64,000 bases of DNA from contig CBDDPY010000002.1 of assembly GCA_965232515.1 (NCBI GenBank), positions 1,248,001-1,312,000 of the forward strand, given 5' to 3'. The DNA comes from Alphaproteobacteria bacterium. GTDB lineage: Bacteria > Pseudomonadota > Alphaproteobacteria > GCA-2731375. Of this stretch, positions 42,572 to 44,396 are shown one piece after another. The position numbers and the translations under genes are program-made. The notes beneath the pieces are model-generated. The model worked only from the letters and a program-made list of their open reading frames with translations. It did not search any database and had not been told where the DNA came from. Position 1 is the first letter of the stretch, and each line of letters opens with the position of its first letter.

Positions 42572-42751
42572 CTAAGCACAGCAAAAGCACGACGCCATCG
42601 GCTTGATCTCCAGCCGAAAAAGGCGGTTGCTGGCTGCGAGTCTGAGTAGCTGATATAATTTGTTGTTACCGCTTCGCGCGCATGTGTTGTCCATGCTAAC
42701 GCAGGCAATGTGCTTGGCGTCGTTGCCGGAACCGATAAACGAAAAGACGTC

Positions 42752-43030
42752 ATGTTGGAGAGCCTGACCTCGGAGCAGATACGGATCGCTGATCCGACGA
42801 CGCCACCGGATGTGCGGCGCAGCCTTCGACGGCGCCAGCTTAAGCGTTACCTGATCGGCACCGTGGCCGCCTTGGTCATTACGGTGATCGGCTTCTATCT
42901 TGCGGTGGCGATGTACTTCACGTCGCTATACGCCGTCATCACGGTCAATCTGGCCCTCGTCTGGGCCATGATCGGCGTCTTGATCCTGATCACGGTCGGA
43001 CCGTTGGTCGTCGTGTTTCTGCGTCGTTAG
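42752..43030 (+). CDS. Small hypothetical two-TM membrane protein
   Basis: 92 aa, basic segment followed by two hydrophobic helices. Confidence 0.6.
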   Translation: MLESLTSEQIRIADPTTPPDVRRSLRRRQLKRYLIGTVAALVITVIGFYLAVAMYFTSLYAVITVNLALVWAMIGVLILITVGPLVVVFLRR

Positions 43031-43506
43031 CCGCCGGCCTTTTGTTTTTCCTGGAACTGGATGAAGCGGATGGCGTCGGCGGGTTCCAGGCGGCCGATGG
43101 GGCCGGTGCTGTAGGTGGCGGACAGGACCTTGCCGGTGTCGTTCAGCACGAAGTTCGAGGGCTGAATGATCTGACGGCGGTCTTCCCACCAGGAACCGAG
43201 CGTGTCAGCGTCCGCGCGTGTCACGCCGTGCGCGATCGGGAACGAGAGATCGGCCGCGACCTCGGCCGCCTTGTCTTCAGGATCGACGCTGGCCGCGATG
43301 ACCCGGGCGTCCAGTTTTTCCAACTCGTTCAGGTGATCTTCGAAGCCGCCCAACTGACGTCGACAGTAAGGTCACCAGTGTCCGCGATAGAACAGAACCA
43401 CGCTGTAGCTGGAGTTGAGCTGATCGGGCAGGGCAAGCGTGCCGCCGCCGACCAGGTTCAGCGTCAGCGATGGAAAGCTGTCGCCGGCATTCAGTTTCTC
43501 GGCCAT
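43027..43506 (-). CDS. Peroxiredoxin-like (AhpC/TSA, thioredoxin fold) probable selenoprotein, UxxC motif
   Basis: Continuous frame MAEKLNAGDSFPSLTL...VVLFYRGHW-TGA-PYCRRQLGGFEDH...; TGA at 43374-43372 sits at the first Cys of the family's WCPYC motif; hairpin directly downstream; RBS GGGAG. Confidence 0.85.
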
Positions 43507-43994
43507 ACGGATACTCCCACGACGGTGCGTCGCGCCTAGCTCAACAGAATTGCCGCGCCGGCGCAATTGCCGAATGCGTGACCCCGAGACAACGACATCG
43601 CCCCGCCGCATCCGCGCCGGGGCGAGTTCGTGAACCGGTGCAATCCGATCAATCCGTCGGGTGCGGACCGTTCAAGGGGTGCTCGGGATCGTTTTCGATG
43701 GTCACGGTACGTCTCCTAGGGTGTCGTTCGGTCGCTCGCAGCCGCTACGTGGCGATTAGTGCTTTGCGGTACAAGTGACATTGTTACGACAACGGGCGCA
43801 CCGACGCTTTCTTCCCCAAGGTTAATGCCGAGGCGGAAATTTTTTGCTAACCGTGTGGCGCGGAATCCCGGCATTTGCAGGCAGTTAGCCGACTTCGCGC
43901 CATTTGTACGCGACGCCAGGGCGGCAACACGCCAAGCCGGTAAAATGTTGTTACCAACTCTTGCAAATGCCCAAACGGGCAACGCTTCCGGACG

Positions 43995-44396
43995 CTATTT
44001 GTGCTTCGGCTCGCGCGGTTCCGTGGCACCACCTGCCTCGCGCCAGGCGCCGTAGCCACCCTCGAGATGGCAGACCGGCTTGAGGCCCATGTCCTGCACG
44101 GCTTTGGCGGCGAGCGCCGAGCGCAGGCCGCCGGCGCAGAAGAACATGAAGCGCTTGCCGGACTGAAAGACGTCGCGGGCGTATGGACTCTCGGGATCGA
44201 CCCAGAACTCCAGCATGCCACGCGGCGCGTGCACGGCGTCGGGGATCGCGCCCTCGCGCCAGAGCTCGCGGACATCGCGGATGTCGACGAAGACCACGCC
44301 ATCGTCGTCCTTCGCGGCCATGGCCTGCTCGACCGTCCAGGTCTCGATCTCGGCCTCGGCCTCGGCGCAGAGCTGCTTGATGCCTTTGGTAATCAT
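43995..44396 (-). CDS. Rhodanese-like domain protein
   Basis: VDIRDVRE, PRGMLEFW, FCAGGLRSALA, LEGGYGAW; RBS AAGGAG. Confidence 0.9.
   Translation of the reverse strand: MITKGIKQLCAEAEAEIETWTVEQAMAAKDDDGVVFVDIRDVRELWREGAIPDAVHAPRGMLEFWVDPESPYARDVFQSGKRFMFFCAGGLRSALAAKAVQDMGLKPVCHLEGGYGAWREAGGATEPREPKHK

Follow-up and report, generated by a model that had tools for sequence, protein, structure and literature searches.

Peroxiredoxin (Prx)-like selenoproteins with a UxxC motif were already treated as known, with 22 sequences, in the Sargasso Sea study (Zhang, Fomenko & Gladyshev 2005, PMC1088965), where the thioredoxin-like UxxC of the family was described as replacing the TxxU of the selenocysteine (Sec)-containing peroxiredoxin. 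In the Global Ocean Sampling (GOS) study (Zhang & Gladyshev 2008, PMC2398784), the family 'Prx-like 1' (pfam00578, UxxC) comprised 225 selenoprotein sequences and 2,740 cysteine (Cys) homologues, and UxxU variants were described within bacterial Prx-like families. Prx-like thiol:disulfide oxidoreductase selenoproteins are also covered by reviews (PMC9312934, PMC13188914), and in a table of the latter the family appears as 'predicted with high confidence', with no member characterised biochemically; the main text of the BSepDB paper (PMC13326102) does not mention peroxiredoxin, AhpC, UxxC or Prx. Here, a gene of this type was analysed in a stretch of 64,000 nucleotides (the window) from an alphaproteobacterial genome (assembly GCA_965232515.1, contig CBDDPY010000002.1, positions 1,248,001 to 1,312,000). 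Its reading frame, the conserved TGA within it, the pairing of Sec with Cys among its homologues, a covarying hairpin, the Sec machinery of the genome and the fold of the product make it very probable that the minus-strand segment from 43506 to 43027 is a functional Sec-encoding gene.

The window protein is a further orthologue of the subfamily published as a selenoprotein in 2005-2008. Its membership in 'Prx-like 1' follows from the heptapeptide GHWUPYC, which occurs 27 times in the GOS supplement, where the passages displayed fall under '#Prx-like 1', and 4 times in the Sargasso supplement, where those displayed are entries labelled 'Prx-like'; the pfam00578 domain and a UxxC with Sec in first place are shared as well. 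The initial annotation stated that UxxC Prx-like selenoproteins are known, but did not recognise that this very subfamily is already published as one. A published example reads ...VLFYRGHWuPYCRRQLVAFEEHKDAL...IQPSEF...SSYSSGPLGR..., and the published members, judged by eye, were homologous to the window protein over their whole length, with the same CAGTTGG or CTGTTAG loop context in their DNA. Nothing essential differs between them, except that the published members lie on metagenome reads whereas the window gene sits in a near-complete 7.4-Mb genome. The locus adds a well-placed genomic example of 'Prx-like 1', in a near-complete genome that also encodes the complete Sec machinery and several sister selenoproteins; beyond the annotation and the model of the Sec insertion sequence (SECIS) described below, the finding is ordinary for the field.

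The reading frame and its conserved UGA codon

On the minus strand, the open reading frames (ORFs) 43372-43611 and 43027-43353 share one frame (43374-43353 = 21 nt). Reading through from the ATG at 43506 to the TAA at 43029-43027 gave 159 residues with a single in-frame TGA at 43374-43372 (codon 45), just as had been proposed from the two ORFs. The translation around this codon is MAEKLNAGDSFPSLTLNLVGGGTLALPDQLNSSYSVVLFYRGHW-U-PYCRRQLGGFEDHL, with VVLFYRGHW-U-PYCRRQLGGF as the local context. The features of the gene are the following.

43027..43506, minus strand: read-through coding sequence of the putative Prx-like (AhpC/TSA fold) selenoprotein, 159 codons plus TAA (translation, Pfam, orthologue alignment over residues 1-159, predicted structure)
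43372..43374, minus strand: UGA codon 45, very probably read as selenocysteine (conservation of the TGA column; Cys codons in other homologues)
43363..43374, minus strand: redox motif U45-P46-Y47-C48 (UxxC) (translation; C48 invariant in 50 aligned homologues)
43514..43518, minus strand: Shine-Dalgarno-like GGGAG, 7 nt before the ATG at 43506 (read directly in the sequence)

The longer start of the first ORF (ATG 43611) is not that of the gene, because all 25 orthologues described below begin with an ATG aligned to 43506. The 5' extension of ORF 43372-43611 showed no conservation in the orthologues, and the ~490 nt between the start of the gene and an upstream rhodanese gene (43507-43994) were without a long conserved ORF. 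Pfam AhpC-TSA matched residues 8-127 (E 4.6e-21, 75.5 bits vs. a cut-off of 26), and this domain therefore spans the TGA; Redoxin matched residues 7-132. When the protein was scanned against NCBIfam, no family scored above its cut-off, the best reaching 27.8 bits vs. 140.

To follow the codon among relatives, 61 genomes (its own and 60 others) were searched with the protein at E <= 1e-10, revealing 29 matching places, 25 of which had exactly one stop, a TGA (46-65% identity). These belong to the own genome and to 24 relatives from 6 genera and 2 families, and in their translations U fell in the same alignment column in every case, within G-x-W/F-U-P/A-Y/F-C-R/G-R-Q-L. The four weaker places (33-35% identity) had no stop and were Cys paralogues. 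Among public contigs, taking one genome per species, 79 of the best 80 of 239 stretches encoding a relative covered the codon, which was TGA in 51 loci, TGC in 16 and TGT in 12. The TGA forms were 47-65% identical to the query and the Cys forms 23-46%. The former came from genomes labelled Alphaproteobacteria/Rhodospirillaceae, Hyphomicrobiaceae, Devosia, Burkholderiales/Betaproteobacteria and Halioglobus/Gammaproteobacteria, and the latter from one gammaproteobacterial metagenome-assembled genome (MAG; L091), Chloroflexota (including Ktedonobacter), Actinoallomurus, Gemmatimonadota, Planctomycetota, Paenibacillus and others. Thus, the possibility that the close relatives would all carry Cys and show no hairpin, raised at the outset, was contradicted by 25 TGA codons in 25 orthologues and by a hairpin that covaries in the Sec forms only.

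A protein collection yielded genuine Cys orthologues at 58-60% identity (P0006, P0010 and P0011). In the same collection the product of the window gene is represented by a 108-aa fragment (P0002), and many relatives are kept as 'peroxiredoxin' fragments of ~107 aa, so that the expected mis-calling by annotation pipelines, foreseen as a pseudogene call, was confirmed in the form of truncation. The appropriate annotation of the locus is a single selenoprotein of 159 residues whose codon 45 carries a translation exception; neither a pseudogene nor a 'peroxiredoxin' fragment of 108 residues should be called here, and the same correction applies to hundreds of truncated public entries. Some full-length entries (P0007, P0016, P0023 and others) have W at the Sec site, which is the output of a gene caller that reads TGA as W. 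Another full-length orthologue, P0005 (a cluster of 28 sequences, 61% identity), has Q at this position (HWQPYC), which such a caller does not explain. On a betaproteobacterial MAG contig (L103:3128-3133) the Trp codon before Sec is also TGA (H-TGA-TGA-P-Y-C), with the hairpin intact; decay, an error and a double UGA are all conceivable explanations.

The codon was also compared with contigs from sequencing runs, because an assembly error at the TGA had been named as a possible refutation. Contigs of four runs from three studies covered it, with no listed difference at 43372-43374. The X1 contig spanned the whole stretch with 0 differences, although X1 is perhaps the assembly's own source and so not independent; record 6 of X3 (43335-43451) also had 0 differences, and record 11 of X4 and record 15 of X5 covered the codon with no difference listed there. 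For a ~95% identical strain among these contigs, 39 differences were counted across 798 nt, with none listed between 43334 and 43415, an interval that includes the UGA and the hairpin.

In a quick maximum-likelihood tree of 108 distinct rows with a midpoint root, one clade (SH-aLRT 88) contained 72 Sec rows and six Cys rows (L091, L093, P0111, P0006, P0010 and P0011). Outside this clade were all-Cys clades of Chloroflexota, Actinomycetota and Gemmatimonadota, plus Cys paralogues. One row (L117) is labelled 'Sec' because another alignment position contains a stop; the codon at its Sec site is TGT. The topology fits, and does not prove, a tentative scenario in which the Sec form would have arisen from Cys within Pseudomonadota, with some later reversions or transfers.

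A covarying hairpin 3' of the UGA

The sequence downstream of the UGA was analysed by comparison among the homologues, and two elements were defined.

43345..43361, minus strand: core SECIS hairpin, with 5' arm 43361-43356, apical loop AGUUG 43355-43351 and 3' arm 43350-43345 (comparative analysis)
43340..43363, minus strand: possible extended lower stem, UCGA 43363-43360 with UCGA 43343-43340 (suggested by the window sequence)

Counted from the UGA, the stem begins 11 nt downstream and the loop at the 17th nt, exactly where an AGUU apical loop had been placed by the initial annotation. The TCGA/TCGA pairing that it had also drawn is present in the window sequence, but as an alternative for the lower two stem positions, and the relatives do not share it in this form but pair differently in the lower stem.

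For the hairpin test the sequences were aligned ungapped from the Trp codon, columns 17-22 pairing with 28-33 around a 5-nt loop, in a set of 76 Sec forms (70 distinct, 420 pair cells) and a set of 28 Cys forms. In the Sec forms 96.0% of the 420 cells were standard pairs, and compensatory changes with both sides altered (32 cells) were found at four of the six pairs: pair 21/29 occurs as G-C, A-U, U-A, G-U or U-G, pair 20/30 changes from G-C to A-U and pair 18/32 from C-G to G-C. None of 500 shuffles reached the observed pairing or covariation score, and when the partner was slid by 1-3 columns at most 53.8% of the cells were paired. A first set of 25 sequences gave the same covariation picture as the 76. 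In contrast, the same columns were only 42.9% paired in the Cys forms, no better than their slid controls (22.6-44.0%).

Loop positions G24, T25 and T26 were invariant in the 76 Sec sequences, the loop being A/U-G-U-U-G/A. The Leu codon in the loop was TTR in all Sec forms (TTG in 57 and TTA in 19) compared to 7 of 28 Cys forms, and therefore the RNA sequence itself, beyond the protein, is under constraint. Of the remaining 337 Leu codons in the 25 Sec genes 21% are TTR, and in a crude long-ORF set of the genome ~9%. In bacterial SECIS elements the GU of the loop is the contact for SelB. The window hairpin resembles the SECIS of the E. coli fdhF type in its position within the coding region, immediately 3' of the UGA, and in its small apical loop with a conserved G, but it is unrelated in sequence, with a short 6-bp stem and the loop A/U-G-U-U-R. 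These comparative data provide a clean SECIS model supported by covariation and a Sec/Cys series, which could guide bench work on the family.

The Sec machinery and the assessment of selenocysteine decoding

The assembly (7.39 Mb in 4 contigs, 96% complete, 65% GC) encodes the genes required for Sec incorporation, all within C2:5873594-5884308. The selA gene (C2:5883193-5884308, 524 bits) is directly followed downstream by selB (429 bits), whose product has EF-Tu domains, the SelB beta-barrel and winged-helix domains. The tRNA-Sec gene (selC, anticodon tca, C2:5877476-5877571) encodes the only tRNA with that anticodon in the genome. Although tRNA-Sec is reported to be nested in selB in some alphaproteobacteria (PMC9312934, PMC13188914), this arrangement was rejected here, as selC lies ~3.6 kb downstream of selB with a histidine kinase/response regulator pair between them. 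The selD sequence (290 bits) forms the C-terminal half of a 774-aa Pyr_redox_2-AIRS (SelD) fusion on the minus strand (C2:5873481-5875805), which is of the Ndh-SelD type, like the fusions described in the GOS paper (PMC2398784). Thus, the bacterium is equipped as the Sec-utilising alphaproteobacterium that had been predicted, and the absence of Sec machinery, which would have spoken against the prediction, was not observed. Among the relatives, SelA was detected (E <= 1e-30) in 22 of the 24 with a TGA orthologue vs. 12 of the 36 without it, a co-occurrence that is descriptive only, the relatives not being independent.

At least four further redox genes with an in-frame TGA were found in this genome.

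C2:6733012-6733377, minus strand: candidate selenoprotein gene, TxxU peroxiredoxin (..DTPGUTIEG..), one in-frame TGA
C2:1340287-1340727, plus strand: candidate selenoprotein gene, second UxxC Prx-like gene (RGAWUPYCNAEL), one in-frame TGA
C2:6784186-6784515, minus strand: candidate selenoprotein gene, UGC-type Prx-like (WASWUGC), one in-frame TGA
C2:4664903-4665109, plus strand: candidate selenoprotein gene, SelW-like/Rdx, one in-frame TGA

The Sec system of this genome is evidently in use, and for redox proteins. In a 2006 table the sequenced Alphaproteobacteria were credited with one selenoprotein family, FdhA; the subfamily studied here was already present in the metagenome sets. A Sec-FdhA as 'anchor' selenoprotein of the sel locus was discarded for this genome, an in-frame TGA being present in 0 of 11 matches to the Molybdopterin domain and in 0 of 6 to the Fe4S4 domain. 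A weak match to a CMD domain with a TGA was also seen at C2:6315276-6315404 (25 bits).

The TGA could be explained in other ways. A dead gene, in which a Cys codon (TGC or TGT) had mutated to TGA, would fit the splitting or truncation of the locus by gene callers, as in P0002 and the many ~107-aa fragments, and the second TGA of L103 could be a case of real decay. Nevertheless, a TGA in the same column of 25 out of 25 orthologues, down to 46% identity, and of 51 further loci in alpha-, beta- and gammaproteobacterial genomes, a protein sequence conserved on both sides of it, with the first 44 codons not evolving neutrally, and a covarying hairpin confined to the TGA forms render such a pseudogene highly improbable. 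For a sequencing or assembly error nothing was found in favour, and with the agreement of the X1, X3, X4 and X5 contigs at the codon and a TGA conserved across 76 genomes its probability is vanishingly small.

Reading of UGA as Trp or another standard residue, through an alternative code or leaky termination, would agree with the public predictions that have W at the site, but this is what a TGA=W caller prints, and the sense codon in this column was always Cys (28 of 28 non-TGA loci), never Trp. As the sole tRNA with a tca anticodon is tRNA-Sec, in a 7.4-Mb, 65% GC genome with a complete sel set, and a SelB-type hairpin covaries downstream, such a reading is very improbable. The same low probability is given to the production of two separate polypeptides, one of 44 residues terminated at the TGA and one of 108 residues initiated at the TTG at 43353, even though this matches the ORFs of translation table 11 and the way the product is stored in databases, and termination at UGA-45 probably does happen under selenium limitation; the AhpC-TSA match crosses the break, the 108-aa piece would be missing strands one to three together with the entire redox motif, and the orthologues conserve the ATG of codon 1 but no start at the internal position.

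Some results weigh against decoding of UGA-45 as selenocysteine and were taken into account in its assessment. Two TGA-bearing relatives (G013, 96% complete, and G024, 94%) yielded no SelA match at E <= 1e-30, which may be due to an assembly gap or to loss of the machinery, and a relative of the same genus (G001, 81% complete) had only a 33%-identical Cys paralogue. The window copy of the hairpin forms five of the six pairs, pair 18/32 being an A.G mismatch; 5 of the 70 distinct sequences likewise have such a mismatch among their six pairs. Folding of the single sequence gave a minimum free energy of -13.8 kcal/mol compared to a shuffle mean of -14.88 (z = +0.40, 128 of 200 shuffles being at least as stable), so that the support for the hairpin is its covariation and not its folding energy. 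When 43250-43450 was scanned with Rfam (E <= 10), no SECIS family was matched, the sole match being the CC0196 small RNA on the plus strand at chance level (13 bits vs. 35, E = 1). Five further differences in the run contigs have no listed position, and one of them could conceivably lie in the codon. The X4 and X5 contigs that hold the gene come from RNA libraries, but such contigs do not show transcription. Clustering of the flanking ORFs at the 76 Sec loci revealed no partner conserved family-wide. Finally, the actual insertion of Sec is inferred, as are the selenenylsulfide cycle, the reductant and the substrate that are considered below.

Fold, putative function and genomic context

An AlphaFold2 model based on the 50-sequence alignment reached a pLDDT of 94.7 and a pTM of 0.90, with U45 placed immediately before the helix 46-57. 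As judged by Foldseek, the model has a peroxiredoxin fold (6q5v_A, TM 0.85, E 2.2e-12; 3hjp_A, TM 0.85/0.85), human Prx1 and others also being matched. In the alignment to 6q5v, C48 falls on the peroxidatic Cys, U45 on the Thr and R41 on the Pro of PxxxTxxC, and the catalytic Arg of 6q5v (..tvRavFIID..), which precedes the central strand, aligns with P116. Among the 50 aligned homologues C48, R41, G42 and R139 were invariant, and H43, W44, P46 and Q115-P116 nearly so.

Compared to canonical peroxiredoxins (AhpC, BCP/PrxQ, Prx6 and the TxxU Sec-Prx), the window protein shares the fold and the position of Cys48 but has Arg41 and Sec45 in place of Pro and Thr, Pro116 in place of the catalytic Arg, and its Sec three residues before the peroxidatic position. 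The PxxxTxxC motif is absent, C48 alone being retained, and so are three of the four canonical peroxidase residues (Pro, Thr and Arg). A genuine TxxU Prx is encoded elsewhere in the same genome (C2:6733012-6733377, listed above). The assertion of the initial annotation that AhpC/TSA proteins carry WCPxC at this place holds for Prx-like and thiol-disulfide oxidoreductase relatives, but not for the canonical peroxiredoxins, which have TxxC.

The likeness to the thioredoxin-fold CxxC oxidoreductases of the TlpA/ResA/StoA types lies in a W-C/U-P-x-C at the start of the first helix: U45 aligned with the first Cys of WCPPC in StoA (3erw), and sequence matches were obtained to StoA (3erw, E 0.0011) and ResA (3c71, E 0.002). 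However, the NCBIfam scores were far under the cut-offs (StoA, 23.3 vs. 210; ResA, 20.4 vs. 170), and these types are membrane-anchored or periplasmic, whereas the 159 residues of the window protein include neither a signal peptide nor an anchor. SelL (UxxU, aquatic eukaryotes) and the 'SelL-related redox protein' NF040769 also have a Prx-like fold with the redox motif in the same place, but the window protein is UxxC and not UxxU, and with 22.3 bits vs. a cut-off of 120 it is not a member of NF040769.

Because UxxC is thioredoxin-like and the Pro, Thr and Arg of peroxiredoxins are absent, the protein is probably a selenol/thiol oxidoreductase built on a peroxiredoxin scaffold with a thioredoxin-type redox motif. 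The following mechanism is proposed. As the ribosome nears UGA-45, SelB.GTP with Sec-tRNA(Sec) would bind the small hairpin 11 nt downstream (6-bp stem, loop A/U-G-U-U-G/A), and selenocysteine would be inserted instead of termination, yielding a 159-residue cytoplasmic protein of peroxiredoxin/thioredoxin fold. Sec45, at the N-terminal end of the first helix, would take the nucleophile position of a thioredoxin-type CxxC, with Cys48 at the place of the peroxidatic Cys of peroxiredoxins, and the two would most likely alternate between the selenol/thiol form and an intramolecular selenenylsulfide. In this scheme the enzyme would be an oxidoreductase of the thiol(selenol):disulfide kind, or else would reduce peroxides in a non-canonical way, and a system of the thioredoxin or glutathione type would return it to the reduced state.

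A wider proposal is possible but rather doubtful, namely that the 'Prx-like 1' UxxC clade is not a peroxidase at all, its Pro/Thr/Arg having been lost and a Sec nucleophile acquired in the place used by thioredoxins, and that it would represent one branch of a selenoproteome that is purely redox and free of FdhA, in marine alphaproteobacteria with large genomes. In this view the protein may serve a specific substrate, for example in the repair of a particular oxidised protein or of a small-molecule disulfide. The basis offered for such a selenoproteome is the presence of at least four Prx-fold candidates (TxxU, two UxxC and UGC), the SelW-like one and the flavoprotein-SelD fusion.

Regarding the genomic context, the gene is surrounded by a convergent small membrane protein, an isochorismatase, a hydantoinase B, the upstream rhodanese (43995-44393), a RidA and a PRISE/epimerase gene. 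The convergent ORF has the following position.

42710-43030, plus strand: convergent ORF for a small hydrophobic protein of 106 aa, overlapping the stop of the selenoprotein gene by 4 nt (weak TctB-like match, 20.2 bits, below cut-off)

When these six neighbours were looked for beside the orthologues, none recurred beyond 1-2 loci. A functional link to the rhodanese gene was dropped, as this gene is not conserved beside the orthologues. In the flank clustering, the largest cluster recognisable as a real gene was an amidase-like ORF (motif read by eye) at 21 loci of closely related genomes. Elsewhere in the assembly, contigs C3 (5,516 bp) and C4 (10,862 bp) have a GC content of 46% and 42%, respectively, compared to 65% in the main contig, and could represent contamination or other foreign DNA, or else a mobile element of low GC.

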